DNA of 64,000 nucleotides from Clostridiales bacterium (GTDB lineage: Bacteria > Bacillota > Clostridia > Oscillospirales > Oscillospiraceae), in assembly GCA_019420945.1 (NCBI GenBank), contig JAHZGF010000003.1, positions 1,288 to 65,287 on the forward strand, written 5' to 3'. The position numbers and the translations under genes are program-made. Within the stretch, counting starts at the first letter, position 1, and each line of letters starts with the position of its first letter. The notes below the pieces were generated by a model. It was not told the DNA's origin. It was given only the letters and a program-made list of their open reading frames with translations, and did no database searches. Positions 15,725 to 38,180 of the stretch are shown here, in pieces.

Positions 15725-15736
15725 GGAGGGATCGCT

Positions 15737-17536: not shown

Positions 17537-17593
17537 GGGGAAACCGGAATACCGAAGAAGAAACAGCGGGTGGCCTGTTTTCATTGGGCACAG

Positions 17594-20915: not shown

Positions 20916-22410
20916 GTTCCCGGCCAGGACATTCTCCCCGGAACAGCCGCCGCCCACAAAACGGGTTGCAGCCTATGCCAGAGTATCCACCATGAAGGAT
21001 GCTCAGGAGAACAGTCTCCAAGCCCAGCAGGAGTATTTCACGGAATACATCCAACGCCATCCGGGCTGGGGCTTTGCCGGGATGTACTCCGATGATGGTA
21101 TCTCCGGGCTGTCGATCCGCGAGCGTGACGGTTTCAACAGTATGGTAACGGATGCCCTGGACGGTAAAATCGATTTGATTCTCACTAAGTCTTTGTCCCG
21201 TTTCGCCAGAAACACTGTGGATGCCCTCACCACTATCCGTAGCTTGAAAGCTGCTGGAGTGGCAGTCTATTTTCAAAAAGAGAATATCAACACAATGGAC
21301 AGCACCGGCGAGTTCCTCATCACCCTGATGAGTTCCTTTGCCGAAGAAGAGAGTCGATCCATCTCCGAGAATGTCACCTGGGCCGTCCGCCATCGATACG
21401 CCCAAGGAATCTATCATCTCCCCGGACTGCTTTTGGGGTATCAGCGCAGCCCGGTTGGCGAAATTCATGTCGATGAAGCCGGGGCCAGAGTCGTGCGGTT
21501 CATCTACCTGCTTGCCCTGGCTGGGAAAAGCAGCACAGATATCTGCCGTATTCTTATGGACTATGGAATTCTCTCCCCGGGACAGAGTCAGAGGTGGGAA
21601 CCGCACACAGTACGCAGCATTCTGAAAAACGAGAAATATATGGGTGATGCTATCCTCCAAAAAGAGATTACCGTGGATTTCCTGACAAAAACCAGAAAAC
21701 CAAACGAGGGCGAAGCGCCGCAATACTATGTGGAGAACGGACATCCCTGTATCGTCAGCAAGTCTGTGTGGCAGGAAGTGCAAGCCACATGGACGGACGC
21801 CATCCGCCGGAATTGCACCTTCTCACCCATTGCCAACAAAGTCATCTGCGGCGGCTGTGGCGGTCGGTATGGTCGAAAGACCTGGCACTCCACCACCTAC
21901 CGGGATGCCGTCTGGGAGTGCAATAGCAAGAAGGCTGGCCGCACAAAATGTAAATGCCGCCACATTTACGCCGAGGAACTGGACACCGCCATTCGCCGCT
22001 CCATGCATCATCTGCTGAAGATCCATAAAAACATCATCCCTGACTGCGCGGATCTGTTGTCACAGACTCCGGGAGAGATTTCATCAGATGCTCGATCCGT
22101 TCTGAATGATATAGCCCGTGGGAAACTGGATATCCGGATTGACGGTCTGATGATTGGTATCCTTATCCGAAAAATGGTGGTCACGCCAAAGCAAACCCTA
22201 GTAATTCACTTTCTGGACGGCACCACCTACCGCCACCGCTTGGGCGCTACCCCCAGAGGAACTCGGCTGTATAGCACGAAGCGAGATCACAGTCAGATAC
22301 TGGCCTTATACGCCGAGGGATGCTCCGCAAAGGAAATATCGCAGAGGTTGGGGATCAGTGTAAATACGGTGCGGTCGTTTTTGCGGCGGCACCATAGAAG
22401 CGATACTTAA
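20887..22410 (+). CDS. Large serine recombinase with a C-terminal sigma-70-region-4/LuxR-like HTH
   Basis: The resolvase catalytic domain is VAAYARVSTMKD...DLILTKSLSRFARNTVDALTTIRSLK. A recombinase domain and a Cys-rich zinc ribbon (CGGCGG...WECNSKKAGRTKCKC) follow. The C-terminal HTH is CSAKEISQRLGISVNTVRSFLRRH. The start is TTG after GGAGGTGA. Confidence 0.9.
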   Translation: MPEKRITRVEFPARTFSPEQPPPTKRVAAYARVSTMKDAQENSLQAQQEYFTEYIQRHPGWGFAGMYSDDGISGLSIRERDGFNSMVTDALDGKIDLILTKSLSRFARNTVDALTTIRSLKAAGVAVYFQKENINTMDSTGEFLITLMSSFAEEESRSISENVTWAVRHRYAQGIYHLPGLLLGYQRSPVGEIHVDEAGARVVRFIYLLALAGKSSTDICRILMDYGILSPGQSQRWEPHTVRSILKNEKYMGDAILQKEITVDFLTKTRKPNEGEAPQYYVENGHPCIVSKSVWQEVQATWTDAIRRNCTFSPIANKVICGGCGGRYGRKTWHSTTYRDAVWECNSKKAGRTKCKCRHIYAEELDTAIRRSMHHLLKIHKNIIPDCADLLSQTPGEISSDARSVLNDIARGKLDIRIDGLMIGILIRKMVVTPKQTLVIHFLDGTTYRHRLGATPRGTRLYSTKRDHSQILALYAEGCSAKEISQRLGISVNTVRSFLRRHHRSDT

Positions 22411-22525
22411 ACGAAGGATGTTATGCACGGGTTGTCCACCCATGCATGGCACCTAATTGCTTGTTCAGCTAAGCCAATCAGATAAAACCGTCACAACCAA
22501 CATTGTAAATACAAAATTTACCAAA

Positions 22526-22942
22526 TCAGCCAATAATCTGAAGGACTAGGTTTTGTAGGGTGTTATCTACTACAGATTTCATCAATTGGCATTCCCAAAT
22601 CTCGATTACACGCCACCCTTGGTTGGCAAGAAGCTGGTGATTATGCTTGTCCCGCTGAATATTTCCGGTAATCTTTTCTTTCCAGAATTCCGCATTATTC
22701 TTTGGCCATACAAAATAGCGGCAACCTTCATGACCATGCCAAAAGCAACCATTCACAAAGATGACTGCTTTGTATTTGGGCAACACGATATCCGGTTTTC
22801 CCGGTAGCTTGGCGTCATTTTTCCGATACCGGAACCCCTGTGAAAACAGGAACTTTCTCACCAATTCTTCAGGTTTTGTGTTTTTGCTGTGAATCCGGGA
22901 CATATTGTAGCTTCGTTGTTCCGGAGTATGCACATCGGCCAC
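22526..22942 (-). CDS. vsr: Very-short-patch repair endonuclease
   Basis: The sequence RSYNMSRIHSKNTKPEELVRKFLFSQGFRYRKN...GKPDIVLPKYKAVIFVNGCFWHGH matches the Vsr family. This is the last gene of the operon, 22 nt after dcm. Confidence 0.9.
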   Translation of the reverse strand: MADVHTPEQRSYNMSRIHSKNTKPEELVRKFLFSQGFRYRKNDAKLPGKPDIVLPKYKAVIFVNGCFWHGHEGCRYFVWPKNNAEFWKEKITGNIQRDKHNHQLLANQGWRVIEIWECQLMKSVVDNTLQNLVLQIIG

Positions 22943-22964
22943 AACAATCCCTCCTCCCTAAAGG

Positions 22965-24239
22965 TTAATCATGTTCATCAAATCTGTCCAGCAAAGCCAT
23001 GGCAACATGATATGCCAAGCACACTGGTACTGCATTTCCAATTTGTTTGAACGCCAATGTTCGTGAGGGAATACCCTTTTTTGATTCGAAATAATAATTA
23101 TCCGGGAATGTCTGTATTCTGGCAGCTTCACGTGGCGTGATTGAACGATTTTGCTCAATATCCGGATGGATAAAATAGTGCCCATCCCGAGCGATATGGG
23201 CAACAATCGTTTGTGCATGCGGCAGATCTCCGGCGACGACTTTAAATCGGTCCAGGAAAGATGTAGTATTTTGATGTGTCCGGAGATTCGCTGGCAAATC
23301 TATATATGACACCCGGGTGCCAGTTCTGTTCCATGTATCCACAACAATCCGATAAATCTCCAGGTCTTGGTCTATGTGCGGTCTCGCTTGGTGGAATGTT
23401 ACTGGTTCAGTATCGTACTCCTTGATTCCGGACTCATACAGATATTGACCGTCGTAGTGTGCTGTAGGAACCGGCTCGGTCGTTCCGCCACCAGCAGGTA
23501 TAGCAGGCAAATCGCCAAATACCTCACTTACCAAATATTGATTTGGTATAGCCGGAATGTCAGGATAAAAGCCTTCATGATTTCCTCTGATGCCAATGAG
23601 AATGATCCTTTTCCGGTTCTGGAGAACTCCGTAATCTGATGCGTTGAGTGGTCGGAATTCAGTGGAGTACCCACATTCGCGGAACAGTGCCCTCATATTA
23701 TCAAAGTGAAGCGTCTCATCTTCGTCCTTGGCCGATAGCAGCCCAAGAACATTTTCAAACACAAAATATGCAGGCTGATATCTTCTCAGAAATTCAGCAT
23801 AGTGTCTGTAGAGATAGTTGCGCTGATCGCCTACCATTCGTGTTTCAGATCGGGATCGGCCTGCAAGGGAATAGGCCTGACACGGAGGCCCGCCAATAAT
23901 CAAGTCCAACGGTTCTTCACCAACCAATGCGTCAACTTCTTCGAAAATAGCCGGCAGCGTTTCCGTAGAAATCTCATAATTCAATACCGAATCCAAAACT
24001 CCCTGCGGAATGTGATCATAAAACTGATTGCGGCTAATTTCCCGATTGAGATATTGATTATATATATCCAACTGGTCATGCTCCCGCAACCAATGGTATG
24101 CCATACGTGTTTTCAACGTATAGCACGCAGCTACATCCATTTCCACATGTCCTACGGCCTCATACCCTGCCCTTAGGAAGCCTTCGGATAAACCTCCAGC
24201 TCCTGCAAACAGGTCCAAAAATCTGGGCATATACATCAC
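22965..24239 (-). CDS. dcm: DNA (cytosine-5)-methyltransferase (DrmMII-like position)
   Basis: Motif I is FLDLFAGAGGLSEGF, motif IV is GGPPCQAYS, motif VI is ENV and motif X is QIGNAVP. Confidence 0.92.
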   Translation of the reverse strand: MMYMPRFLDLFAGAGGLSEGFLRAGYEAVGHVEMDVAACYTLKTRMAYHWLREHDQLDIYNQYLNREISRNQFYDHIPQGVLDSVLNYEISTETLPAIFEEVDALVGEEPLDLIIGGPPCQAYSLAGRSRSETRMVGDQRNYLYRHYAEFLRRYQPAYFVFENVLGLLSAKDEDETLHFDNMRALFRECGYSTEFRPLNASDYGVLQNRKRIILIGIRGNHEGFYPDIPAIPNQYLVSEVFGDLPAIPAGGGTTEPVPTAHYDGQYLYESGIKEYDTEPVTFHQARPHIDQDLEIYRIVVDTWNRTGTRVSYIDLPANLRTHQNTTSFLDRFKVVAGDLPHAQTIVAHIARDGHYFIHPDIEQNRSITPREAARIQTFPDNYYFESKKGIPSRTLAFKQIGNAVPVCLAYHVAMALLDRFDEHD

Positions 24240-24277
24240 CCCGTCCTAACTTACATTTGGTTTGATGTCTGACCACC

Positions 24278-26011
24278 TTATGTACCAACTTGCGTAAAAC
24301 CAGACAGAATCATATTTTGGCGTTCCTGCTCGGCATTGCAATCATAAAGAACATAGAGCATCGCGCATGCACGGGAAGCTGCCACATAATTCAGCAACCG
24401 GGTTTCCTCATCAGAAAAATGGTCTATATCAATCATAATTACAATTTTCGATTCCAAACCTTTGAAACCGGAAATTGTAGAAAATCTCACATCGTTCTTT
24501 TTGGCTTTCCACAGTGGCCCTGTTGTCTTCAATGTTCCAAGGTCTTTATCCAGTCCTGTGAGACCCAGTCCATTCAGGGGATTTGCCAGCGTGTAGCGGG
24601 AAAGAATTATAAAATCGCTGCCAATCGCACCGCTGTCCTTAATTTTCCGGACAATCGCATTGATTTTTTTCCGTTCATCATCTTTTCCGTTATAGCTGCC
24701 ATACTCGACCTGTGGGCCTGACACCGTGGGTTTTCCCTGATTGGGAATGTTGGTCATCAGAATATTGGCATTTGCAATCTGCTTGGTGTTTCTGCAATTC
24801 GCATGTAATTTCCAACTCATTGCATACGCTTCTTTGCGAAGTTTCTTTATCATCGCATCAAGCTGAGCATAGGAATTGAAGATATTCTGGTTCGGATCAT
24901 AATAAATTGCCCATGATCCGTCGCCCAATCCATCCCGTACAATTCTGTCAATGCACTCCAGGTAGGTATCAGTGAGCAAATCCTGTCCTTCATCAATGAT
25001 TACCAAATCATACGCAGGAACATCTTCTGCCACAATAAAAGTTGCTGGCAATTCTTTCTCATAAAAATGCTGACTCAGATCCGAAGACCACTCAATACCG
25101 CAGGTACGCATCATGAATGCATGAAGTGTAACCGCTTCAATATAGACTCTGTCTTTTTCGAACTGGTACTGCACATACTGGGCAATATTGTGGTTATAGC
25201 AAAGGTACAGTACACTTTTTCCTTCCCAATATGCCCTGCGGGCCTGCTCCATTGCAATCAATGTTTTGCCTGCACCCGCAACGCCGGAAACCATCGTCCG
25301 AGGATTTTCAAAAAGCGATTCCAACACTTCATATTGCTCAGCGGTTAGCGCACACAACTCCTTCACTGTACGTTCCACCGTATCCTTCATAGAAGGAACA
25401 AAATAAAAATCACCGCGAAGCAGATTAGCCAGCTTATCGATTTCGGCATCAGTCAGCCGCCCACCCTCAAAGCCGTGCTTGTTCAGACAGGCCTGTCTCC
25501 AATATCCAAATGCCTGATTGGCAATGCTGTCCAAATTCCAGGACTGTTTTGCATCGACCAAGATCTCTGGAACAACATCGATACCGACACCCGTTGCTTC
25601 AAAACGGCAATCTGGCATAGCAACAGCACATGCATACTGGCAACGCACCAGTGGATCATAATTTCCAAGCCTGCGAACCATATACTGTCTTAAAGACTGC
25701 ATATTACCCTGCACTTGCTGGAATGGTCCTTCATTCTTACGAGAGATTTTGCCGTAGCGATTTGTAAATTCCCATACGCCATTTCTGCGGGAAACCTGCC
25801 CACCCTTAACTTCAAGACACAGTACACCCTCATTGCACAGAATTACAAAATCAATCTCACCGAAAATATTGTTGGCATGCTCTGCAATTCCCAATGAATG
25901 CAGAACAATATATTTTTTATTCGTTCTATGGTCCCGGAATTCGATAAACAGTCGCTTTTCAGCAGGACTCTTGATTTCCGGTGACAGAACATCTGGAATT
26001 AATTGAACCAT
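24278..26011 (-). CDS. NERD-domain nuclease fused to a UvrD/AAA_19-type SF1 helicase
   Basis: The NERD core is FGEIDFVILCNEGVLCLEVKGG. Walker A is SGVAGAGKT, Walker B is VIIDEGQDL, and the C-terminal UvrD_C-like segment is ISGFKGLESKIVIMIDID...YVAASRA. Confidence 0.8.
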   Translation of the reverse strand: MVQLIPDVLSPEIKSPAEKRLFIEFRDHRTNKKYIVLHSLGIAEHANNIFGEIDFVILCNEGVLCLEVKGGQVSRRNGVWEFTNRYGKISRKNEGPFQQVQGNMQSLRQYMVRRLGNYDPLVRCQYACAVAMPDCRFEATGVGIDVVPEILVDAKQSWNLDSIANQAFGYWRQACLNKHGFEGGRLTDAEIDKLANLLRGDFYFVPSMKDTVERTVKELCALTAEQYEVLESLFENPRTMVSGVAGAGKTLIAMEQARRAYWEGKSVLYLCYNHNIAQYVQYQFEKDRVYIEAVTLHAFMMRTCGIEWSSDLSQHFYEKELPATFIVAEDVPAYDLVIIDEGQDLLTDTYLECIDRIVRDGLGDGSWAIYYDPNQNIFNSYAQLDAMIKKLRKEAYAMSWKLHANCRNTKQIANANILMTNIPNQGKPTVSGPQVEYGSYNGKDDERKKINAIVRKIKDSGAIGSDFIILSRYTLANPLNGLGLTGLDKDLGTLKTTGPLWKAKKNDVRFSTISGFKGLESKIVIMIDIDHFSDEETRLLNYVAASRACAMLYVLYDCNAEQERQNMILSGFTQVGT

Positions 26012-26023
26012 ATTTTTCTCCTG

Positions 26024-27871
26024 TTATTCCAGCAAGGCTCCAAAGAATCCCCGTTCTCTGTCTTTTATAGTACCAACTACAGCAGCTCGATCCAACAAGC
26101 AGTTTCGCATTTCACAGCTGGTTTCAGGCAAAAGCGAACAAGCGTGGCACGCTGCGTAATTTAGAGAGTCATATCCCTGTGCATGAGATTCGATGCAAAT
26201 AGGATCGGAGGAACACCAAGACGCTTCCTGGAGCATATTTCTGAAAATCATTTCAAAAGACTCCGGGAGTCCTTTTCTCACCAATCCGCCCAAGCTACCA
26301 TCAGAGTCAGAAGAAGAAGTATATAACAGAATACCTGCCATTTTTACATCAGATTCCGGATAGGTGCTGTAAATCCGTTCCTTAATGGAAGCACCGGAAT
26401 AACCGCACTCCAATGACAACTGACGGATCAGCAGATGAGAAAGCGTGTGCAGCAGTACATACCGGGCGGAGAAATTCTCGCAGCCCACATTACTGTGTTC
26501 CAGACGGTCCCGCATGGGCAGATACTCATCCTCAAAAGCCGCTTCCCATTCTTCCAATGCATCTTCTCTTAGCTTGATGAACAAACCTTCTCCCAGCATT
26601 ACAATGGCAGGAAGCCAGTTCAACTCCACATCACTGAGCGGGACACAATCTCCGGACAAGTGGTATCCTTTGAATCTGTCGTCATCAGCATTGGGTTGCT
26701 CTGGAGTAATCCGGCGGAAGCCGCGCAACGCAAGTACCTCACGCAGGCGCTTTGCCAATACGACATCTTCGATATAGTCCTCGAGGAATTCCGGAACCGT
26801 TGCTCGTGCAATTCTGAACTGCACATCTTCCGGATCATCGTAATCACCCATGCAGAAAACACGATACTCATCTTCAAGCAGGTTCTGCTTGGTATACTCA
26901 CCTCCATCGCCGTCATTATAACGTTTCTTAATCTCAGATATTAACTCATCAATTGTACAAATCTGCATCGCCAATAACGAATGGAATACACCTTGTACAA
27001 CGGCTCTCAGGACATATTCATCTGGGTTGCTCGCCAGAATATCTTCAATTTGCTCCCATCGTACCGCAATTTCCTGCTGAACCTTACTGCTCCAAGGTGG
27101 AATAGTTAACGCACTTGCTGTCATAGAAAAATAAACATTGGAAGCCCCACGCTGGAGTGCCCGCAGCTGTGCTGTGCAGGACACCGGATCATTATATTCC
27201 TTTTTGCTGCCCAGCCAGGGACGTTTTCCGTGACAGGAGTAGCCCCGGAGGGCATCCTTAGCCATACTGCCAGCCATTGTGCGACTCTTTCCACAAGCAG
27301 TACACTTGATAACAACGCTGTCCAGTCCACCGGTTTCATCGGAGAAACTGATGCGAAGGGCACCGTTGCGTTTATCAGAAGGACATTCACTAAAGTTCCC
27401 GTAATGGACCCACCATTCATAGGGGAAGTCCTCCAGGTGGCCATTGGTACATGCGGCAATAAAACGGGAGGGAACAATATTTCTCTTAGGATGACCGTTA
27501 GAACAACTGCGGTCTGTCACATCGCCAAAGCCCCAGTACGGCATCAGCCTCCCGCAATTGGGATCAGGGCAGAAATGATAGTAGGGAAAGCGGAATGCCG
27601 GAACATCCGGAGTCATTTCGTCATCTTGGGAATTGGACACATAAGGCTCTTTGAAATGTGAGACTTTCAACAGTTTTTCAAGATTTGGTTCGTGCAGAAC
27701 CGGACTGTTATCCTTCCAGTAATTGGCACCCGCCATAATGACAGAATAATCCGGCATATCTACAATAGAACCGTTGCCGAAAGTGGTAATCAACTGCGTT
27801 TTGCGCAATCTGCCCACCACTTTCTTAGGCTTGGCTTGATCTCTGTTTGAACCAAAGTGTAGTCTTGCCAT
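26024..27871 (-). CDS. DUF1998-domain protein (DrmB-like)
   Basis: Several Cys clusters are present (HFCPDPNCGR, IKCTACGK). The C-terminal DUF1998/MrfA-type zinc motif is YAACHACSLLPETSCEMRNCLLDR. The start lies 2 nt after the stop of the helicase gene. Confidence 0.8.
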   Translation of the reverse strand: MARLHFGSNRDQAKPKKVVGRLRKTQLITTFGNGSIVDMPDYSVIMAGANYWKDNSPVLHEPNLEKLLKVSHFKEPYVSNSQDDEMTPDVPAFRFPYYHFCPDPNCGRLMPYWGFGDVTDRSCSNGHPKRNIVPSRFIAACTNGHLEDFPYEWWVHYGNFSECPSDKRNGALRISFSDETGGLDSVVIKCTACGKSRTMAGSMAKDALRGYSCHGKRPWLGSKKEYNDPVSCTAQLRALQRGASNVYFSMTASALTIPPWSSKVQQEIAVRWEQIEDILASNPDEYVLRAVVQGVFHSLLAMQICTIDELISEIKKRYNDGDGGEYTKQNLLEDEYRVFCMGDYDDPEDVQFRIARATVPEFLEDYIEDVVLAKRLREVLALRGFRRITPEQPNADDDRFKGYHLSGDCVPLSDVELNWLPAIVMLGEGLFIKLREDALEEWEAAFEDEYLPMRDRLEHSNVGCENFSARYVLLHTLSHLLIRQLSLECGYSGASIKERIYSTYPESDVKMAGILLYTSSSDSDGSLGGLVRKGLPESFEMIFRNMLQEASWCSSDPICIESHAQGYDSLNYAACHACSLLPETSCEMRNCLLDRAAVVGTIKDRERGFFGALLE

Positions 27872-27873
27872 AA

Positions 27874-30800
27874 TTACAGTCCTCCCAACAGGTAAATACC
27901 AGACTGGCCATCCACATTACGCATACTGTTCATCGTACGGAAACGGTCATTTTCAGTATCACCTTTCAGCAATTCTTTCTCATTTTTCCTGCCTTTATAT
28001 ACGAGGGAACCGGTCGCTGCAATATCCCACGCATCCTGAATATCTTTGAGTTCATCCATGACTGCCGACAATTCATCGGGGTCAACTCTTCTTACATAGT
28101 CTATAATGATTTTCTCAACCTTTTGAATTTCAGGATTGTCAGAGCGGTAATTGATTGCCTGACTGTTTCCTCTGAGGTTCTCGATCAGATAACGGCACAG
28201 GGAAACATATAATGCGTGCAGGCCACGATCTCTTGCACGGTCAGAGAAGGGGGTAAGACTTGTCGCTTCCACATAGCGGTACAACGCAGAATGATACTTC
28301 AGGAACTGCTCATAGTGTGAGCGGTCACGGGAACGGGATGCGTTGTACACAGCAATAACCAATCCGGGATTATCACGGCCCACACGGCTGGTTGCCTGAA
28401 TATACTCTGCATTGGTTTTCGGCTGACCTGCAACAACCATTGCACCCAAACGGCCCACGTCAACACCAACAGAAATCATATTGGATGCCAGCAGATAGTC
28501 AAATACATCCGCATGGTTATCCTTGGTATAGCCGCGTTTTAGCTTGACCTGAATAATCTCTGTGATTTCGGAATTACTCATGCGGCTTGTCAGTTCTTCC
28601 GTATATGTATACCCCTTGGAAGTATCTACACCAGGGTAGACAGACACAAATTTCGTTTTCGCAAGGTAATCCAAACGGCTCTGAACGTCGTCAAGGATCT
28701 GCGTACTTGCACCGCCCAATTCCCGCAAGCTGTTGAAATAACCCGTAATAGTCCAGAAATTATCTACAACTGCATCAGGATATCCCAATGTTGCCAGATA
28801 GCGCGTGGCAAACAGCATGGCTGCATTCACTCTGATCAATGTCGTGGTTGCAGTCGTTCCGATACCCATCACTCCAAAATACTGACGGGCAGGTCTTTCT
28901 TCAGGCGTGGACTGTATAGCAAAGAACGAATCCTTCGCAGAAAGGCCCTGCGGTGGAAACTGCGTGTGACCACGTCCATACAATGCCATGATTTGATTTG
29001 CTGCATTCCGGATGGTTGCGGTGGACGCAATTACTTTTGCGCAAACACCATCGCGCTCACAGAGCTTCGAGATGGCCGCCTCATAGATACCGGTCATCGT
29101 GCCGAGGGGACCGGAAATCAAATGCAGCTCGTCCTGGATAATAAGTTCCGGAGGCTTTTTGTTGTTCGCAATACCAAACAGTGCCGCCGGTTTGTCATTA
29201 AGAGGGATCTGAGCAAATTTATCTACAGTTGCCACAACAAAAGTAGGCAGATGCTGGTAAATAGCATCGTCAATAATATGAATAGGGAGACCGCCCGGCG
29301 CAGAATGGAAATGACAATGCTGATTCGGGCATTTGATTGTCATTCTGTTTTGAACAAGATCAACATCATAATGTTGTGCATAGAGCTTTTCACCGCACCA
29401 GGGACAAACCTTGATTTGCACAGGGTTTGACTTTTCATCAACACCGCCCTGTTTTTGCTTGTTGATGCTGGTTCTTGCATCTTTCAAATGATTGGGGGTA
29501 AGGTTGCCACCAACCCACAATCCAATGGAAATCTCATTTCCACCCAAACCATACTTTTTTCGCAGCAGTTCACATGCAAAAATCAGAATACTGGCTCGTT
29601 CAAACTGCTGGAGCGTCAAAAGCCTAAGTGTATATCGCATAATTACGGTAACCCCATCTGCGTTTGCATCACGAAGTCTGCGCAAAAAGATTACAAAGGC
29701 AGTAATACCTAAATATGCCTCTGTTTTACCACCGCCGGTGGGGAACCACAGCAGATCGACCATCTGTCGATCCGGAACATCCTGTCCGGGATGACCCTTT
29801 GGTTCAATAAAAGAGGTCAGCTCATGCAATACAAATGCCAGCTGGAAAGGATACCAGCTTACTTTGGCAGGGTCAAAAGATTTGCCGTTTTTCAGCAGTG
29901 TTTGCCTCCGTTGGAGCAGCATCGCCTCATTGGCAAGCTGGAAGGCACGGAAAACCTTTCCATCGCCAGCCGCACTGTCTTTCAGCAACTTGATAGCATA
30001 GTTTATTCTGTTGCATGCATCTTGACATTTTTGGATATTACCTTTAGCAACATCCTGCAAACTGTCTTTAACTCCAGACAGGAGATCGCCCTGATCCGTA
30101 ATCCACTTCTGATACTTAGCAGCAAATGCACTCAATTCACGAACGACCTCTTCAACAGATGCGGTAGCCAGAAATTGCATTGACAATACATTTCCACTGA
30201 CCACTTCTGCGGCTTTCATCTGACGGAGATTGAATGTTGGGAAAAATGCAGACTCTACCCATTCAGGCTCGGCATTATCCATATCCCACATAACAGAGCA
30301 TCCGTGTCCCTGCGCATAGCAATGGACATCAGAATACAGCATATCCAATTCCAGAAGTTCCGGATCGGTAGTCAAATATGCCTGCCGGTTTACACTGGTG
30401 AAAACAGCTGTTCCATCACTGCTGCTTACTCTGATGTCGGGCTGAAAAGCACAACACCTGGAGGTGGAGGTCATATCATTTTCGGACTGGTTCTCGTTAA
30501 CCAGTGCAATCGTAATTACACGCTCACCGGAATCCATAATAGAGTGTGTATAAACCTGCAGCTGGAGTCCGTTGGGTAAGTCTGCGTACTCCACCCGTTC
30601 GCCAGTAAATATAACTTTTTCGGCATAAGAATACTCGTTGCGTCGCCAAATTTCTTTGGGCTTCTTTTCTAGATATTCCCATCTGGAGGTATCAATTCCA
30701 CACTCCTTTGCATCATCAAAGGAAATCGGCTCATAGAAGGCATAGCTGCCAGAAATACAAATTGCACCGACACCTGCTTTCAGTGTAACCGTAATACCCA

Positions 30801-31053
30801 TAGAAGAAGGATTATTCTGATTACTCAGAGAAATGGATGCATCATAGGTTTCAATCTCATTTTCCAACAAGGGATTCCGCGCCAGATCCAATGCCTCCAC
30901 AGTATCCTTTTGCGGATACAGTTTGCCCATGATGTAATACTGAACCGGAACTTCAGCAAGGCATTCATCTTTTGTGACAGGTCCAATAAAATCCTGCTCC
31001 AGAATGCAGGATACAACCTCTCTGGCTTCATAGTATTTTGAATAGTCAGCCAT
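27874..31053 (-). CDS. Large SF2 helicase (DrmA-like)
   Basis: A roughly 430-aa N-terminal region of unknown fold is followed by motif I FPTGGGKTEAYLG, motif II IIQDELHLISGPLGT and motif VI QATSRVGRDNPG. The gene immediately precedes the DUF1998 gene. Confidence 0.8.
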   Translation of the reverse strand: MADYSKYYEAREVVSCILEQDFIGPVTKDECLAEVPVQYYIMGKLYPQKDTVEALDLARNPLLENEIETYDASISLSNQNNPSSMGITVTLKAGVGAICISGSYAFYEPISFDDAKECGIDTSRWEYLEKKPKEIWRRNEYSYAEKVIFTGERVEYADLPNGLQLQVYTHSIMDSGERVITIALVNENQSENDMTSTSRCCAFQPDIRVSSSDGTAVFTSVNRQAYLTTDPELLELDMLYSDVHCYAQGHGCSVMWDMDNAEPEWVESAFFPTFNLRQMKAAEVVSGNVLSMQFLATASVEEVVRELSAFAAKYQKWITDQGDLLSGVKDSLQDVAKGNIQKCQDACNRINYAIKLLKDSAAGDGKVFRAFQLANEAMLLQRRQTLLKNGKSFDPAKVSWYPFQLAFVLHELTSFIEPKGHPGQDVPDRQMVDLLWFPTGGGKTEAYLGITAFVIFLRRLRDANADGVTVIMRYTLRLLTLQQFERASILIFACELLRKKYGLGGNEISIGLWVGGNLTPNHLKDARTSINKQKQGGVDEKSNPVQIKVCPWCGEKLYAQHYDVDLVQNRMTIKCPNQHCHFHSAPGGLPIHIIDDAIYQHLPTFVVATVDKFAQIPLNDKPAALFGIANNKKPPELIIQDELHLISGPLGTMTGIYEAAISKLCERDGVCAKVIASTATIRNAANQIMALYGRGHTQFPPQGLSAKDSFFAIQSTPEERPARQYFGVMGIGTTATTTLIRVNAAMLFATRYLATLGYPDAVVDNFWTITGYFNSLRELGGASTQILDDVQSRLDYLAKTKFVSVYPGVDTSKGYTYTEELTSRMSNSEITEIIQVKLKRGYTKDNHADVFDYLLASNMISVGVDVGRLGAMVVAGQPKTNAEYIQATSRVGRDNPGLVIAVYNASRSRDRSHYEQFLKYHSALYRYVEATSLTPFSDRARDRGLHALYVSLCRYLIENLRGNSQAINYRSDNPEIQKVEKIIIDYVRRVDPDELSAVMDELKDIQDAWDIAATGSLVYKGRKNEKELLKGDTENDRFRTMNSMRNVDGQSGIYLLGGL

Positions 31054-31077
31054 AGCAAAACCTCCGGTTCTGTATAA

Positions 31078-33546
31078 TTAGTATGTGTCTTTGTCAACTG
31101 CTGCAAACCCTGTGATGGTTATGCCAGACCAAATACTGACATCTCCAAAGGTCTTTGCACCTGCGGGAACAGGGGCTATTCCAGACACACACGTTGTAAT
31201 GTTGTGGACATACACATCACAAAATGCATGAGGATATACCTCATAATACACCGAGCAATTCATATTTTTTATATGCTGAATTGCCTTTTCCAGTTCATGC
31301 GCAAAAGATTTGCTGGTATAGCCCAGTACAAGCTTTTCGTTGTCTTCCAGCACAATTCGATAAACAACATAGGGTTTTGTTCCTTCCGGACATTTAAGCA
31401 GTTTCAATCTCATTCCAGAATGAACACTCTTCCGGATATACTGCTGAAGCCTATTGTCGGCAGCGAAAGAGCGCAGATCCAGGTCGGCATCACTGCCAAC
31501 CTCGAAATGAGAAATATACCTTTTAAAGCCACCGGCTTTCGCACATCGTTTGCTCTGATCGTCATTCCTTGTAATGTAGATCTGTTTATCCTTCTTGGAT
31601 ATCTCGGCTCTTTCTACCTTTTTCTTTGGCCGTGTCAATGCAACATAACATACCTTATGTTCCAAAAGGTCTTCTGTATCGGGATCTGCCATTGCCTCAA
31701 TCACATCGTCAATGACAATCACAGAGTCAAATTCCTTGCCCTTTGCCCGATGAATGTTACTGACCGTAATAGAGTACTTGGCCCCCGTTCCGGATTCATA
31801 CAGCATTGGCTCCTTGGCATTCCTCAAGAGGCCTTTCAGCAGATCTGCAACCTCATATCTCTTCCGCGCTTCACCACGCTGTGTTGAAACAAGAGCCGTC
31901 CACCGCATATGTGCCATTTCGTATCCAGCCTCCGGAAACAAAGCAAGATGGTTTGACACAAAGGCAGTTTCATCAATAGATTCGTTTTCGTAGCCACAGA
32001 ATATACGGGCAATCCAGTCGCCCAGCGTCGGAGACCCCAGGCCACGGTGCAGAGTATGCGGAACATCCGCATTTTGGAGCCATGCAGAGATCTGCAATGC
32101 CTGTCCATTTGTGCGGGTAAGAATACCCAATGTCTCACCCTGACCGACATATCGCAGTGCATCGTCCCTTGAAAACTTGGTCAGTTTTACAGGCATCCGG
32201 GGAATGTGTGTCAACAAATCTTTCGCTGCAGAAACCCGTTCCGTGGTGGAACCAGTAAGGATTGCCTTCCGGTATGGGACAGTCAACTGCCCAAAGGTAT
32301 CACCCTGGCGGTGATTCTCTGTTAGTGCGTAATAATTGGCACTGGGGAAACTTTCGAAAATGTCTTGATAGAATTGCTCAGAGGACATAATCGCAGGATC
32401 GCCTTCTGCCATATAGTCGTACAAAGCCTGGCAAGAATCACCCAAAATCGTAAAACCACAAGTGTCAGGGAGGCCTTTCAGCATTGCCAGAACCAACTCT
32501 GCCCGGCTACCAACAAGATCTTGAACCTCGTCGACGATGATATGCTCATAATCAGCCAGCATATCTTTTTTCTTTTTGAAAATAGATGTTGCAACTTTTA
32601 TGCGCTGATCATAGTCATATGCTTCCAGAAGAAAATGTTTGGGAAGCAAATCCGTATGATTGTCCTGCACCCATGCCAGCATATATGTAGAGAAGGAGTC
32701 AAATGTACGAACATCTACATCCTGCCACTCATAACCGATGCGCCCATTCTCGGCAGCATCAGAGAGTCTGCTTCGTACAACCTCCACAGCGGAGCGAGAG
32801 AAACACAGAACCAGGATATTCTCTGCATTAGCCTGCTCCTCGTTGATCATATGGATGATTTTTTCAATCAAGGTCCATGTCTTGCCCGTGCCGGGGCCAG
32901 CATTTACGATGCTGCGCTCTGCAGGTTCCGCTTCAATGATTTCGTCCTGTGTGGTTTCTTTAAAGGAACTGAAATCGATTTTCTTGACTTCCGCAGGCTG
33001 GGACACCGGCTGAACGGGTTTCCGGACAACGAACGGAGCGTCCGGTTTTTTCTCCGCAGGAGTTGGAGTCCCCGATTCTCCAGCATGCTTCTGTTCCGGG
33101 GTGTCTCCTGCAAACAGTTTCGCTGCCGCTCCGGCATCTCCATCTTCTGGTGCACGCTTCTTTCGTGCAGCTTCTTCAAATTCAAAAATTGCCGGTTGAG
33201 CCCTTTTGTTCTCCTCATGTATTGCTAACTCGGAAGGATCAAAATCGGGACGGCAACTATGAAAGTGGCCGCATTTCGTGTTAAGGCACCTGCAGACGAC
33301 CTGCTCATGCCCCTGCTGGTCTCTAATTGTTCCCCAGGGATAGTCATTATTTGCAGCGTATGCGCAGTGAACCGATGCATAATCGTATTCTTTCTTCTGA
33401 AGGCTCGTCAATGCACATTGTTTTTTGAGAATCTCCAGCGAAAATGGGTCATGTATTTTGGAGCGGAACGTAGAGTCCTCATAAAAACTCTTTTCTACAG
33501 GATACAAATTGCTTCGGAACGCTACAGTACTGATATTACTCTCCAT
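31078..33546 (-). CDS. UvrD-like SF1 helicase with an N-terminal Cys/His cluster and an extra C-terminal domain
   Basis: The N-terminal cluster is CRCLNTKCGHFHSC. Walker A is NAGPGTGKT, Walker B is IIVDEVQDL, and ENHRQ and HRAKGKEFDSVIVID...VALTRPKK are also present. The start overlaps the Hsp70-like gene stop by 11 nt. Confidence 0.8.
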   Translation of the reverse strand: MESNISTVAFRSNLYPVEKSFYEDSTFRSKIHDPFSLEILKKQCALTSLQKKEYDYASVHCAYAANNDYPWGTIRDQQGHEQVVCRCLNTKCGHFHSCRPDFDPSELAIHEENKRAQPAIFEFEEAARKKRAPEDGDAGAAAKLFAGDTPEQKHAGESGTPTPAEKKPDAPFVVRKPVQPVSQPAEVKKIDFSSFKETTQDEIIEAEPAERSIVNAGPGTGKTWTLIEKIIHMINEEQANAENILVLCFSRSAVEVVRSRLSDAAENGRIGYEWQDVDVRTFDSFSTYMLAWVQDNHTDLLPKHFLLEAYDYDQRIKVATSIFKKKKDMLADYEHIIVDEVQDLVGSRAELVLAMLKGLPDTCGFTILGDSCQALYDYMAEGDPAIMSSEQFYQDIFESFPSANYYALTENHRQGDTFGQLTVPYRKAILTGSTTERVSAAKDLLTHIPRMPVKLTKFSRDDALRYVGQGETLGILTRTNGQALQISAWLQNADVPHTLHRGLGSPTLGDWIARIFCGYENESIDETAFVSNHLALFPEAGYEMAHMRWTALVSTQRGEARKRYEVADLLKGLLRNAKEPMLYESGTGAKYSITVSNIHRAKGKEFDSVIVIDDVIEAMADPDTEDLLEHKVCYVALTRPKKKVERAEISKKDKQIYITRNDDQSKRCAKAGGFKRYISHFEVGSDADLDLRSFAADNRLQQYIRKSVHSGMRLKLLKCPEGTKPYVVYRIVLEDNEKLVLGYTSKSFAHELEKAIQHIKNMNCSVYYEVYPHAFCDVYVHNITTCVSGIAPVPAGAKTFGDVSIWSGITITGFAAVDKDTY

Positions 33547-35002
33547 GCTGCACCTGCTTTCCAGGCAGCTTATAATAGCACTTCAACTGTGTGTATTCCC
33601 ACAGCCGCCGGAACTCTGCGGGCTGCATATTACTTCCGGCAACAACGGTGAACACCATATTCTGATCAACAGAAGCATTGAGTACAATCTGCTCCTGAAG
33701 GAAACGATACGCAGGGACCGAAAGTGTCTTATATCTTTCCGGAGAGGCCTCGATATCAGGACTTCCACCAAAAACAAAACGGGCTTCCTTGCTGGAATCC
33801 ACGATTCCGAAATGGCATGTATGCTCCCATCCACGAATTGGAGTATCCGGCTTCAGAATTTCGTAGTATGCATTGTCACTCAGAACGATACCAATAGACT
33901 GATTGGCATAATAACCACCGGGAGTCATTGCCAGCATAGCAGCACCCTGGCCGACATTCCACATGGTTTCTTCCGGGAAAAACAGCTTGTCTCCATACTT
34001 GTCATCCATCTTCTCCAACAGAGGACGCAAATTGCTGCTACCGCCCACCATAACGATCCGATCAATATTGGCAAGTCCAACTCCCGACTGACGGATAGCT
34101 TCCTCCAGACAGTCCATCGCCATCGTGACTTCTGGATCTACAATGTCAGCAAACCAGTCATATTCCAATGTTTCACGGCAGGCACCATACACGCCATAAT
34201 TATTGATAGAAATCGTGGCGGTATCATCATCGCCCAGCATGCGTTTTGCACGCTCGGCACGAACCCGCATCATATCCTGGGCGCTGGACGGCATATCTGC
34301 GAATGCCATCTCAACACCATTTTTACGGGCAATTTTTGCATGAATTCGCTTGGCAATTTTATCATCGATATAGTCACCGGCAATGCCTCTTCCGACTGTT
34401 GCCAATTCAGATACTTTTCCATTGACATGCTGAAGAATGGATACATCCAGCGTGCCACCGCCCCAGTCAAAAATCGCAACAACAGAAGAACTTTTCAGTT
34501 CATCATAGTTTGCAAAAAAGGCCGCAGTGGGTTCACTGATAAAAGAACTAATATGAATACCGGCTTTCTTTGCTGCTTCACGCAGTTTGGCACGCTTTGA
34601 TGCGCTGAAGCCAACGGGGATCGCAACAGTTGCCTCTTCCATGTCAATTCCGGTACGATTATGGACATTGGCTTTCAGATGCTTAAAAACCTCGCTGGCC
34701 ACATCGACAGCAGTCCATTCACGGCCTGCAATTGTTTTTATCCGCTCAGAATCCAGAATGGTCTTAACCGATGAGATATACTCACAGGATTCGCTCAGCT
34801 CCATCTTTTTATCCCATGCATCCCGGCCAGCGAATACAACGCCTGTGGTTTTATCAATCGCAACAACGGACGGGATCGGACGTCCTTCTCCATCGCCGTA
34901 TTTAACGGCTTCCGGCTTTTGATCCATCACCACATATCCAACAGTTGCACTGTTGGTTGTGCCGAAGTCAATGCCAAAATAATATTTCAATCCTGTTGCC
35001 AC
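33536..35002 (-). CDS. Hsp70-family ATPase (DnaK-like nucleotide-binding domain with a short divergent C-terminal domain)
   Basis: Phosphate-1 is YFGIDFGTTNSA, phosphate-2 is IFDWGGGTLDVSI and the adenosine motif is IVMVGGSSNLRP. At 488 aa the protein is shorter than canonical DnaK. The start is GTG after GAGGTGA. Confidence 0.85.
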   Translation of the reverse strand: MATGLKYYFGIDFGTTNSATVGYVVMDQKPEAVKYGDGEGRPIPSVVAIDKTTGVVFAGRDAWDKKMELSESCEYISSVKTILDSERIKTIAGREWTAVDVASEVFKHLKANVHNRTGIDMEEATVAIPVGFSASKRAKLREAAKKAGIHISSFISEPTAAFFANYDELKSSSVVAIFDWGGGTLDVSILQHVNGKVSELATVGRGIAGDYIDDKIAKRIHAKIARKNGVEMAFADMPSSAQDMMRVRAERAKRMLGDDDTATISINNYGVYGACRETLEYDWFADIVDPEVTMAMDCLEEAIRQSGVGLANIDRIVMVGGSSNLRPLLEKMDDKYGDKLFFPEETMWNVGQGAAMLAMTPGGYYANQSIGIVLSDNAYYEILKPDTPIRGWEHTCHFGIVDSSKEARFVFGGSPDIEASPERYKTLSVPAYRFLQEQIVLNASVDQNMVFTVVAGSNMQPAEFRRLWEYTQLKCYYKLPGKQVQHGE

Positions 35003-35013
35003 GGTTTTTCACC

Positions 35014-36300
35014 TCACTTAATTTTCATGCCGCCTTTTTCCAGTATATCGAAGATACTCTGAAGCTGGAGCCTCAGGTTCTCACCCAAATCACAGCTCAT
35101 AGGCACATCCAACGCATCCACAAAATCCCGATATTCGATGCGAATCTTGGATGCCAGTTTTTGAAGCAACTCGTCAGCCTGTTTACTTCTGTCCCGACTG
35201 AGAACCTCTGCCATTTTAACTCTTTCTGCTATTTCTGCATCTTTTTCGGCGATAACTGCATCTTTTTGCTTCACCGCCTGTCTCAGCGCAAAGATATCAC
35301 CTTCAGTGGCAGACAGTTTCTTCCTTAATTCAGTGATAGTATCCTGTAGATCTGCTATCTGTTGATTAGCTCCCTGAAGTTTATTTTGTTCTCCTTCCAG
35401 AGCTTGGGTCAGTGCATCAATTTTAACCCTCTGCTGTGTACTCTCGGCCTTGACAACGGTTGTAACTTTAGCAGCTTTCCCAAGCAACTCAGTAAGATAT
35501 GCTATCATGTCTGCGGGAACCTTTTCCTCAGGCTGAGCAACGACCACTCTCGGTGTTTGAACTTTCTCTTCCTGGGAATTGTCTGCAACAGATATGGTCT
35601 TCGCTTTTTCTTCTGTAATTGTTGTTGCCTCAGGGATTACTTGATCAGTCTTTGTGTCTGCACTGACCCTTTGGGAAATATCATAATCAGCAAACCACTT
35701 GCGAATCTTCGCAATATTTTTTACAACAACCCCTTTTGCTGAACCAGCATTTTCAATGCCATCCATTATGGAAGAAACAAGCGCTACAAACTCGTTAATG
35801 AATACCGGTTTGGTTCCAATATCTGCAAGAGGACATAGCTCCGCATCCGGTCGCAGTTCCGCCAGGAAATACTTCTCCAATGTTTTCTCAGCCGTGCCGA
35901 GCCGTTTTTTATCTTTATTAACACATGCACCCGGCAACCGCTTAATTATGGGCGCCAGTATATTCCTGGGAGCATTGTTATTAAGCATCAACGCAAGCAA
36001 ATGTGTCACCAAGCGGAAAGATACATTGCTGTCAATACCGTAGTATTTTCCGCTGAACATTGTTGCCAGTGTTGCATTTTGATCTTCCGTTTGAATCAAA
36101 TAGGCATAGAAAGGTTCTGCTCCACAGAAAGCAAATCCTTCATACAAAAACTGTTCGGCGCGACCGACCAAACCTGTATCCGCCACAAGGCTAAGCCATG
36201 CGCTGCGAAAAGCTTCTTTTTCCTTAATTGTAGGCTCTTTCTTTTTCTTTTCTTTTTTTACCTTCATCAACGCATCAAGCGTTTCAACGTATTTATCCAT
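35014..36300 (-). CDS. Hypothetical protein with a long C-terminal coiled coil (possible GrpE-like tail)
   Basis: The ORF has a GGAGG RBS at the chosen ATG (MDKYVETL); the longest ORF starts at 36345. The C-terminal ~130 aa are heptad-rich (QNKLQGANQQIADLQDTITELRKKL...) and end in GENLRLQLQSIFDILEKGGMKI. No family was recognised for the N-terminal half. Confidence 0.6.
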   Translation of the reverse strand: MDKYVETLDALMKVKKEKKKKEPTIKEKEAFRSAWLSLVADTGLVGRAEQFLYEGFAFCGAEPFYAYLIQTEDQNATLATMFSGKYYGIDSNVSFRLVTHLLALMLNNNAPRNILAPIIKRLPGACVNKDKKRLGTAEKTLEKYFLAELRPDAELCPLADIGTKPVFINEFVALVSSIMDGIENAGSAKGVVVKNIAKIRKWFADYDISQRVSADTKTDQVIPEATTITEEKAKTISVADNSQEEKVQTPRVVVAQPEEKVPADMIAYLTELLGKAAKVTTVVKAESTQQRVKIDALTQALEGEQNKLQGANQQIADLQDTITELRKKLSATEGDIFALRQAVKQKDAVIAEKDAEIAERVKMAEVLSRDRSKQADELLQKLASKIRIEYRDFVDALDVPMSCDLGENLRLQLQSIFDILEKGGMKIK

Positions 36301-36359
36301 GATGATTCCTCCATCAATTATCATTTTATTGCATTTTCTGTCCAATAAACCATCTATAT

Positions 36360-36572
36360 TCAGACTTCCGAATTCTTTATATACTCCACAATATCCCCAA
36401 AATCCGTATCCAGAGTGTCGCAGATTTTTTCCAGCACACCCATGGCCACAGGTTCGTCCCTGCGGAGTTTTGTCATGGTATTGGGGGCCAGTCCGGCAGC
36501 CTTGCGCAAATCGGCTTTGCTCATCTTTCTGTCAATCAACAACTTCCACAGTCTGTTATACGAAACGGCCAT
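36360..36572 (-). CDS. XRE-family HTH regulator (COG3655/YozG-like), first gene of the defence operon
   Basis: The sequence SYNRLWKLLIDRKMSKADLRKAAGLAPNTMTKLRRDEPVAMGVLEKICDTLDTDFGDIVEY fits the family. An AGGAGG RBS lies 8 nt upstream. Confidence 0.8.
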   Translation of the reverse strand: MAVSYNRLWKLLIDRKMSKADLRKAAGLAPNTMTKLRRDEPVAMGVLEKICDTLDTDFGDIVEYIKNSEV

Positions 36573-36603
36573 ATAGGAAACCTCCTGACAACATTACAAG
36601 TAT

Positions 36604-36640
36604 ACAAAATAATTATATCACATTTTGTCAGAGTTTTCAA
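36604..36640 (-). promoter_or_regulatory. Sigma-A-type promoter with a palindromic operator for the defence operon
   Basis: On the minus strand the promoter reads TTGAAA-17 nt-TATAAT with TGn extended -10. The -10 sits inside the dyad ACAAAAT-N11-ATTTTGT (36604-36628). A second dyad, CTGACAA/TTGTCAG (36585-36591 / 36625-36631), brackets the start region. Confidence 0.5.
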
Positions 36641-38164: not shown

Positions 38165-38180
38165 GGAAGGAGTGATCACC

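Follow-up and report, generated by a model that had tools for sequence, protein, structure and literature searches.

What does an Hsp70-type ATPase do in an operon of DNA helicases? The question is raised by nine genes on contig JAHZGF010000003.1 of a Clostridiales bacterium (assembly GCA_019420945.1), within a stretch of 64,000 nucleotides (positions 1,288 to 65,287 of the contig) that is called the window here. Nine uninterrupted open reading frames (ORFs), all on the minus strand, fill the block 22526-36572. From the helix-turn-helix (HTH) gene at the 5' end to the Vsr gene at the 3' end, the gaps between them are 59, 11, -11, 24, 2, 12, 38 and 22 nt by coordinates, exactly as given in a first-pass annotation made from the letters alone. 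Its gene identifications were all confirmed by Pfam, PADLOC and NCBIfam, and inspection found the catalytic motifs intact in every enzyme (Table 1). That annotation saw a core resembling class 2 of the restriction-modification-associated defence island system (DISARM), extended by an Hsp70-like ATPase and a coiled-coil protein. The block probably represents a single coherent system of defence type, horizontally mobile and of DISARM lineage, that comprises three modules. The Hsp70 gene is not a chance neighbour, as judged from its conserved gene context.

The Hsp70-like protein matches Pfam HSP70 with 4.1e-36. A profile of its family aligns with DnaK residues 1 to ~467, comprising the nucleotide-binding domain (NBD), the linker and the beta part of the substrate-binding domain (SBD-beta). 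The NBD covers residues ~1-365 and SBD-beta ~366-480, with beta strands at 363-478 in the AlphaFold2 (AF2) model (pLDDT, for predicted local distance difference test, 83; predicted TM-score, pTM, 0.81). The best Foldseek match of the model was the lid-truncated docked DnaK 7krv (TM 0.82), followed by other structures of NBD and SBD-beta, with E-values of 1e-31 to 1e-34 against DnaK and Hsc70. The helical lid (SBD-alpha) is absent: the chain stops at residue 488, right after the beta domain. An alignment of 70 diverse family members shows no variation in GIDFGTT, K80, E157, DWGGGTLD or GGSS. The protein scores 128-140 bits against the DnaK and HscA models of NCBIfam, with cut-offs of 620-820, and is not placed among the orthologues of either. 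Sequence and model describe a lid-less Hsp70 with intact ATPase motifs and assign it to a distinct family. An exhaustive phmmer search found 218 clusters at 50% identity (E<=1e-30), mostly of 475-495 aa and aligned end to end; tblastn of the Hsp70 against plasmids gave no match. Some Hsp70s (L019, 1830-4175; P0262, P0274, P0290) have 200-320 N-terminal residues of tetratricopeptide (TPR) repeats fused to the NBD.

The preceding gene encodes a partner protein, with an ATG at 36300 behind a GGAGG ribosome-binding site; the longest ORF reaches 36345. The architecture is kept in all clades: an all-alpha N-domain (1-204), a variable disordered linker, a single helix or coiled coil of ~134 residues (263-396) and a conserved C-terminal helix with the motif Y.DF...DLGENLR...IF..L.K.GI. 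The partner belongs to no Pfam or PADLOC family and has no P-loop, and a PDB profile search returned coiled-coil noise only. Foldseek with its AF2 model (pLDDT 69) gave nothing significant, and the weak top hits were helical-repeat proteins (E 0.04). The initial search met no relatives below 93% identity. When a profile was built from divergent members, it recovered only 22 proteins, all of one clade, and the alignment used for the structure was therefore shallow.

The following gene encodes a UvrD-like helicase, and its residues 1 to ~100 constitute a separate conserved domain that had been overlooked. SN(I/V)xxxSN(V/I)(Y/F) is located at the extreme N-terminus, followed by a Cys-rich module in which C61, G72, C87 and C92 are invariant and C98 is nearly so. 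The module presumably binds zinc. The domain has no PDB relative and no PADLOC match. Its profile matches only the N-terminus of the gene directly 3' of Hsp70, in every family locus with sequence available; L015 was counted after reading a masked ORF by eye. Hsp70 stop codon and domain start are separated by 4 nt in the median (range -14 to +51, n=70), a spacing compatible with translational coupling. Usually fused to a UvrD-like helicase, the domain stands free as a protein of 113-190 aa in L021, L032 and L025; L017, L020 and L022 carry it on other proteins. Partner, Hsp70 and N-terminal domain constitute the conserved module and are called the trio below. A J-domain or GrpE identity of the partner or the N-terminal domain was considered and rejected: Pfam, NCBIfam and PDB searches gave no such matches, and an HPD motif is missing.

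The family comprises 73 loci, or 44, 31 and 12 clusters at 90, 70 and 50% Hsp70 identity. The 31 lineages at the 70% level span at least eight phyla. The taxon scan used one genome per species and the 70-member Hsp70 alignment. Family taxa are Lachnospiraceae, Atopobiaceae, Eubacterium coprostanoligenes, Acutalibacteraceae, Treponemataceae, Thermosyntropha, Cloacimonadota, Gastranaerophilales, Desulfomonile, Acidobacteriaceae, Synergistaceae, Clostridium and Ruminococcus. A partner homologue lies directly 5' of the Hsp70 gene in every family locus where the contig has room. Where the contig allows, no family-type Hsp70 was found without partner or N-terminal domain. Family members score at least 420 bits against the family profile, generic DnaK-like genes at most 302. 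None of the generic genes from the same scan has an N-terminal-domain gene downstream, and a weak, coiled-coil-type match to the partner profile occurs upstream of only two (L034, L035).

The genes behind the trio are conserved as well. A seven-gene block, partner-Hsp70-UvrD-DrmA-DrmB-NERD helicase-methylase, recurs at 73-87% Hsp70 identity in three unrelated settings: beside a bacteriophage exclusion (BREX) system in Butyricicoccus pullicaecorum (L001), between metabolic genes on a Synergistes chromosome, and 3' of a relaxase on a mobilisable element. The first-pass annotation had made its claim depend on the Hsp70, coiled-coil and UvrD genes recurring with DrmA and DrmB in other genomes. Dozens of independent loci show this co-occurrence. 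Among the locus ORFs, BLAST and profile searches found partner-Hsp70-UvrD-DrmA-DrmB down to 30% Hsp70 identity, a range that includes Eubacterium, Acutalibacteraceae, Gastranaerophilales, Clostridium, Synergistaceae and Ruminococcus. Of the 26 lineages (70% level) whose downstream DNA is long enough, 22 have UvrD-DrmA-DrmB behind the trio. In the reverse direction, metagenomes were scanned with a DrmB alignment: nearly all loci with a DrmB of >=56% identity and enough DNA had the trio upstream. The five genes from partner to DrmB are the conserved unit; the genes for HTH protein, NERD-helicase, methylase and Vsr vary, and the HTH gene is confined to the closest relatives (94% identity, L091-L117) and L020.

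The alternative of chance has to be weighed against this census: partner-Hsp70(-UvrD), DrmAB(-NERD helicase) and Dcm-Vsr could be independent systems packed in a defence island. Such islands do stack unrelated systems, and BREX adjoins L001. The methylase and Vsr vary in position and identity, and the trio is also found with partners other than DrmAB. Yet order and abutment are kept across the 31 lineages and at least eight phyla, and the Hsp70 was not met without its two companions. Moreover, the third trio element is fused to a UvrD helicase that is itself integral to a UvrD-DrmA-DrmB cassette in relatives lacking Hsp70. Chance juxtaposition is very unlikely.

Some loci show other features around the trio. 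L108 (5597-9998) is a decayed copy with an intact partner gene, a 102-aa Hsp70 remnant running into a DrmA without its first ~120 residues, and a deleted UvrD gene. An unknown protein of 1016-1075 aa is encoded directly 5' of the partner in L016 (5647-8697), L021 (5409-8540) and L032 (5313-8540). Other conserved unknown genes (226-373 aa) lie 5' of the partner in L171-L174, L023 and L024. The conserved unknown genes in this position had no Pfam or PADLOC match.

How close is the operon to DISARM? DrmA scores 982.6 bits against the NCBIfam equivalog NF038325 (DISARM_DrmAS, cut-off 950) and 4e-235 with PADLOC DrmA, and it has the motifs GGGKT and DELH. The DruE models of PADLOC reach only 1.7e-3 with it. 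DrmB follows after 2 nt, scores 501.5 bits against NF038324 (DrmB_fam, cut-off 240), and matches PADLOC (1e-79) and Pfam MZB (4.8e-9); its family alignment has many invariant Cys residues. The 5-methylcytosine (m5C) methyltransferase matches PADLOC DrmMII (PDLC02649, 1.7e-162) over its full length, is above the cut-off of TIGR00675 (dcm), and has the motifs FAGAG, PCQ, ENV and QNRKR. DrmA, an adjoining DrmB and a DrmMII methylase, as expected of class 2 DISARM, are therewith present. Class 2, as Ofir and colleagues reportedly laid it out in 2018, has the order drmE-drmA-drmB-drmC-drmMII. No PADLOC model for DrmE matched any of the nine proteins or the UvrD-like protein's N- or C-terminal part. 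Neither a phospholipase D (PLD) domain nor DrmC was found in the operon with Pfam and PADLOC. Because DrmE and DrmC are absent, the operon is not a canonical class 2 DISARM, and the class-2-like core of the first-pass annotation holds for DrmA, DrmB and DrmMII. Its statements on the missing DrmC, the NERD-helicase in that slot and the UvrD-like helicase 5' of drmA agree with PADLOC and Pfam.

The NERD-helicase matches Pfam NERD (2e-11), AAA_30 and UvrD_C_2 as well as PADLOC RTasNERD-Hel (7.6e-43), and carries the motifs D..EVK, GVAGAGKT and VIIDE. Its nuclease domain is of the PD-(D/E)xK type, and it is the likely candidate for a nuclease effector in the DrmC slot. The nearer clades and the Rhizobium and Azospirillum relatives have it; the L023/L024/L030/L031 clades lack it.

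An ordinary class 2 DISARM with a few passenger genes, which would add nothing to Ofir et al. 2018, is a highly improbable description of the operon. DrmA is above the DISARM equivalog cut-off, the DrmB and DrmMII matches are strong, and the PADLOC hidden Markov models evidently take in close relatives. Nevertheless, the PADLOC definition of DISARM type II requires DrmA, DrmB, DrmC and DrmE as well as DrmMII (PMC9252829), and DrmC and DrmE are not detectable. The presumed passengers are more tightly conserved with DrmAB than is the methylase. The DISARM-like clade, furthermore, holds many uncharacterised classes (Bell et al. 2025, 10.1101/2025.09.15.676423). The arrangement could also have been an already named system, as the first-pass annotation had pointed out. 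Models for Hsp70, partner and N-terminal domain are all missing from PADLOC v2, and the operon lacks the DrmC and DrmE that the type II definition needs.

The UvrD-like helicase matches Pfam UvrD-helicase (4.6e-24) and UvrD_C and, in PADLOC, GajB-type models only. Its Walker A motif is GPGTGKT, and its gene overlaps the Hsp70 gene by 11 nt. It had initially been taken for an extra helicase, but its orthologues sit 5' of DrmA in Hsp70-less relatives too, as an integral part of a recurrent UvrD-DrmA-DrmB(-NERD helicase) cassette. A sister class from gut metagenomes (DrmB ~55% identical) encodes a UvrD-like protein of 1136-1616 aa, then DrmA-DrmB-NERD helicase, without the trio (L136, L147, L148, L152, L153, L156-L159, L163, L165, L170; e.g., L157, 2052-13567). 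The N-terminal 500-960 residues of these UvrD-like proteins had no match in Pfam or PADLOC. A degenerate Hsp70, partner or N-terminal domain hidden in them was rejected; profile searches found none.

The closest plasmid relatives of DrmA and DrmB (35-39% identity) likewise follow a UvrD helicase. These unnamed cassettes, UvrD-DrmA-like-DUF1998(-NERD helicase), have the core order of the operon and a different front end; their helicase is not named DrmA by the prokaryotic genome annotation pipeline (PGAP). Rhizobium rhizogenes pC5.7d (NZ_MK318970.1; L175, 1-13422) encodes m5C methylase-McrB-like ATPase-DUF2357-Vsr-UvrD-DrmA-like-DUF1998-NERD, and resembles the operon also in its methylase, Vsr and NERD-domain protein. 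The McrB-like call is based on Walker A/B motifs and the neighbouring DUF2357 annotation; the protein had no PDB sequence match. Azospirillum ramasamyi (NZ_CP029836.1) has a 929-aa UvrD-DrmA-like-DUF1998-NERD/helicase. Tsukamurella (NZ_LR134452.1; L177, 1631-10725) has m5C methylase-RelA/SpoT-like protein (464 aa)-UvrD-DrmA-like-DUF1998. In Hsp70-less relatives, the place of the trio is taken by McrB-like plus DUF2357 (McrC-like) proteins, a RelA/SpoT-like protein or a long N-terminal extension of UvrD. Canonical DISARM loci on plasmids of Microvirga, Oscillatoria and Bacillus cereus are at a similar or greater distance. The UvrD-like helicase belongs to the core, and the front end is what varies, because UvrD-DrmA-DrmB recurs in Hsp70-less relatives, while the canonical DISARM loci have no UvrD gene. 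On the Oscillatoria nigro-viridis plasmid (NC_019763.1; L180, 10611-16536), a class 1 DISARM, plasmid-borne genes of the sliding clamp and clamp loader (dnaN, dnaX, holA) lie directly 3' of DrmB.

Methylase and Vsr form a pair of the Dcm-Vsr type, with a gap of 22 nt and both proteins above their NCBIfam cut-offs (Vsr: Pfam 1.5e-37; TIGR00632 155.7 bits, cut-off 97.85). Among relatives, Vsr co-varies with the m5C methylase. The methylase itself is replaced by unrelated m5C enzymes, shifted upstream or absent.

Outside the DISARM-like context, the trio accompanies other engines. Two of the 26 lineages are Druantia-like (L025; L021/L032). L025, an Acidobacteriaceae metagenome-assembled genome (PNAR01000267.1, 827-15182), has the order DruF-partner-Hsp70-N-domain-DruL-DruE (DruE2 model, 1828 bits), similar to Druantia II/IV. 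The free N-domain has 190 aa, and the opposite strand encodes a Vsr-like nicking endonuclease in fusion with a DruM methylase. In L021/L032, the trio is located 5' of a DruE1/3-like YprA helicase of 1616 aa with an MZB domain. The remaining two lineages differ from both. In L017, the trio is accompanied by a PLD nuclease, a 1019-aa protein of unknown kind, BrxP and a UvrD helicase; a profile search rejected the 1019-aa protein as a DrmA relative. L020 combines the trio with an SNF2+NOV_C helicase and DUF1156 methylases.

Several observations weigh against the three-module reading. L017 and L020 have no detectable YprA helicase, and the target of the trio may be the fused effector rather than DrmAB. 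The SN..SNVY peptide is proposed as a client of SBD-beta from its position and conservation only. Confidence in the partner model is no more than moderate (pLDDT 69), and Foldseek found no significant structural match for the N-domain. Methylation-based self-recognition is not universal for the family, because L172, L174 and L023 carry the five-gene core without a methylase within reach, and may not be the basis of discrimination by the core. Many loci are gut-metagenome contigs of shared ancestry, and raw locus counts overstate independence.

Comparison with known systems places the operon next to, and outside, several of them. Like class 2 DISARM, it has the YprA-type helicase split into DrmA and DrmB, followed by a DrmMII-type m5C methylase, in a mobile, defence-island context. 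In contrast to it, the operon adds the UvrD-like helicase, the NERD-helicase, Vsr and the trio, and the methylase is dispensable in some clades. Druantia shares the YprA-family helicase with DUF1998, and the trio occurs in the DruF-DruL-DruE operon and in front of the DruE1/3-like helicase. Druantia centres on one large DruE helicase, accompanied by DruA-D, DruF/G or DruH. The operon differs by its split DrmA/DrmB form and by the lack of DruF, DruG, DruH and DruL in the window; Druantia genes are present only in the relatives L025 and L021. Druantia I/II have been classed as type IV coiled-coil nuclease tandems (CoCoNuTs; PMC11090510).

A published parallel for the Hsp70 is CnuD of type III CoCoNuTs, a protein of Hsp70-like NBD/SBD and HEAT repeats with a degenerate Walker A-like motif and predicted RNA binding (PMC11090510). 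CnuD works with the coiled-coil McrB-like GTPase CnuB and the superfamily 1 (SF1) helicase CnuH; CoCoNuTs are built on CnuB and the McrC-like CnuC (PMC11090510). In both, a restriction-type system has an Hsp70-like protein of its own, in company with an SF1 helicase, helical repeats and long proteins of coiled-coil type. The ATPase motifs are invariant in the operon's family, whereas the Walker A-like motif of CnuD, known here from its published description, is degenerate. No operon protein matched AAA_5/McrB or DUF2357 in Pfam, PADLOC and NCBIfam, as CnuB and CnuC would. Hsp70 proteins have also been described in GTPase-centric conflict systems (Kaur et al. 2020, PMC7159879).

A survey of YprA systems names ARMADA, BRIGADE and TALON, with no mention of Hsp70 (Bell et al. 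2025, 10.1101/2025.09.15.676423). ARMADA type II resembles the operon by a YprA-like helicase, a GajB/UvrD-like helicase with a special N-terminal domain and a methylase (10.1101/2025.09.15.676423). It differs by a BrxHII-like helicase, a PglX-like N6 methylase, a RelE-like N-domain, the lack of Hsp70 and a YprA clade nearer to Druantia. No earlier account of this class or of the trio was found in the full-text literature searched for Hsp70 with DISARM or defence, where the relevant papers were those on CoCoNuTs (PMC11090510), GTPase-centric systems (PMC7159879) and DnaJ-bNACHT25 (PMC12169576). The first-pass annotation knew of no characterised defence system with an Hsp70-family ATPase in this context. 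The association is new for DISARM and YprA systems, but not for defence in general, because of CnuD (PMC11090510) and the GTPase-centric systems (PMC7159879).

How may the three modules work together? In the first, the UvrD-like SF1 helicase, DrmA and DrmB would form a core engine that translocates on foreign DNA. By analogy with the class 1 DrmAB complex, whose structure has been solved (PMC9142583), DrmAB may load on invading DNA and be restrained on modified self DNA. The NERD-nuclease/SF1-helicase would be the likely DNA cutter in place of the PLD nuclease DrmC. In the second module, the DrmMII-type methylase would mark self DNA and Vsr would limit the mutagenic cost. Vsr repairs T:G mismatches that arise from deamination of 5-methylcytosine, as in Dcm-Vsr. 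In the third, the front end, the lid-less Hsp70 and its partner would act on the N-terminal peptide and Cys-rich domain of the UvrD-like helicase; in the Druantia-like loci, the client would be the free N-domain adaptor. The Hsp70 may be an ATP-driven clamp or remodelling switch that, pending a trigger, keeps the helicase-nuclease inactive or assembles it. The partner could provide dimerisation or a scaffold, as a surrogate for the missing lid and co-chaperones. The HTH protein is probably a local transcriptional regulator. The analysis establishes the gene content, the intact motifs, the Hsp70 fold, the strict linkage within the trio and the linkage of the trio to YprA-type helicases. We infer the physical interaction of Hsp70, partner and helicase, the direction of regulation, the dependence on methylation and the anti-phage activity.

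A well-established housekeeping counterpart for such a switch exists. At the lambda origin, DnaK with DnaJ and GrpE releases lambda P from DnaB and activates the DnaB helicase. An Hsp70 ATPase switches a helicase complex there by remodelling a bound protein, as is proposed for the trio. DnaK has a lid, a J-protein and GrpE, whereas the operon's Hsp70 is dedicated and lid-less, with a coiled-coil partner and no detected J-domain or GrpE protein.

The retained SBD-beta permits another function. Lid-less and thus open to clients, the Hsp70 module could be a sensor of infection or a targeting device, either as a decoy for phage proteins that hijack DnaK or as a unit that binds RNA, as proposed for CnuD, and guides the system to viral nucleic acid. 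The N-terminal TPR repeats of some members are a typical ligand-sensing domain. Precedents are the chaperone-mediated phage sensing by DnaJ-bNACHT25 (PMC12169576) and the RNA binding proposed for CnuD (PMC11090510). The invariant ATPase motifs, unlike the degenerate Walker A-like motif of CnuD (PMC11090510), and the strictly co-inherited N-terminal domain of the next gene, an obvious internal client, make this function rather unlikely. The switch acting on the helicase is preferred. Its generalisation is held tentatively and with slightly more doubt than confidence: the trio may be a portable, ATP-driven switch or sensor of chaperone type that is plugged onto DISARM-like UvrD-DrmAB, Druantia DruE, SNF2/DUF1156 or PLD engines and is interchangeable with McrBC-like and RelA/SpoT-like front ends.

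The genomic setting is that of mobile DNA. G+C is ~46% across 18-38 kb around the operon and 57-62% in the flanks. Large serine recombinases are encoded on both sides (20887-22410 and 42328-43986), as the first-pass annotation had reported for the vicinity of the operon, and a DUF3987 protein at 38172-40439. The low-G+C block and the bracketing recombinases fit the cargo of an integrative element. On such integrative or mobilisable elements, the operon could instead serve DNA repair or maintenance of the element, with the Hsp70 supporting its replication or transfer. Repair is the role of UvrD and Vsr, and among the YprA helicases MrfA is a repair enzyme (10.1101/2025.09.15.676423). DrmA belongs, however, to the DISARM equivalog and not to the MrfA branch. 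The linkage to methylases, NERD and PLD nucleases, Druantia genes, BREX and type I restriction-modification neighbours, and the patchy, horizontally transferred distribution, leave a function outside immunity extremely improbable.

Table 1. Operon features and their positions in the window
Feature	Position	Strand	Evidence
Vsr endonuclease, 138 aa	22526-22942	-	Pfam Vsr 1.5e-37
m5C methyltransferase, DrmMII type, 424 aa	22965-24239	-	PADLOC DrmMII, TIGR00675
NERD-SF1 helicase, 577 aa	24278-26011	-	Pfam NERD, AAA_30, UvrD_C_2
DrmB, DUF1998/MZB zinc-binding partner of DrmA, 615 aa	26024-27871	-	NCBIfam DrmB_fam, PADLOC, Pfam MZB
DrmA, YprA-family superfamily 2 helicase, 1059 aa	27874-31053	-	NF038325, PADLOC
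UvrD/GajB-like SF1 helicase, 822 aa	31078-33546	-	Pfam UvrD-helicase, UvrD_C
N-terminal domain of UvrD-like protein, ~100 residues	33232-33546	-	family alignments
Lid-less Hsp70-like ATPase, 488 aa	33536-35002	-	Pfam HSP70, AF2, Foldseek
Coiled-coil partner protein, 428 aa	35014-36300	-	AF2 model, conserved position
Small Cro/C1-type HTH regulator, 70 aa	36360-36572	-	Pfam HTH_26
Promoter-like site, extended TG	36612-36640	-	consensus match only

The single good promoter of the first-pass annotation corresponds to TTGAAA-17-TATAAT with an extended TG at 36640-36612, ~40 nt 5' of the HTH gene. It matches 11/12 consensus positions and is the best of 31 matches in 22-37.2 kb, a total not above that of shuffled sequences. 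A second, weaker site at 36344-36317 lies 5' of the partner gene. The HTH protein matches Pfam HTH_26 (6e-22) and a VanU-like NCBIfam model (5e-22, below its cut-off). Downstream of Vsr, no T-rich terminator was found. The 115-nt convergent gap to the serine recombinase gene has an imperfect 9-bp hairpin without a T-run (22420-22470), which may be a bidirectional terminator.

A protein of Schlafen AlbA_2, HATPase_c_4 and winged HTH domains (18625-20304, minus strand) adjoins the operon's recombinase and has weak PADLOC matches to proteins associated with prokaryotic Argonautes. A gene of the homologous type lies just 3' of DrmB in L031 (19577-21010). Two very long ORFs are located in the high-G+C flank, at 6237-10973 (minus strand, 1578 aa) and 13973-17584 (minus strand, 1203 aa). 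The shorter one had no match in Pfam or PADLOC; the longer one was scanned with PADLOC only and had no match. A long minus-strand gene array occupies ~45.3-59.1 kb, with a double ABC ATPase at 45313-46746. Two more low-G+C stretches are at 44-46 kb and 54-60 kb, and a search of the window for tRNA genes found none.

DISARM and Druantia are widespread and their activation is poorly understood; the trio gives a mutable handle on the switching of helicase engines. Current annotation tools would call the operon at most an incomplete DISARM. A core that accepts Hsp70, McrBC-like or RelA/SpoT-like front ends suggests a general design of sensor module and YprA/UvrD engine. The operon would also mark the third time that prokaryotic conflict systems independently recruited an Hsp70. 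If the portable switch holds true, a dedicated Hsp70 machine would for the first time be seen to control a DNA-targeting immune helicase, and a new, widespread class related to DISARM would be defined. The family is abundant on mobile elements of human and animal gut Bacillota and therefore bears on phage therapy and on how genes move through the microbiome.

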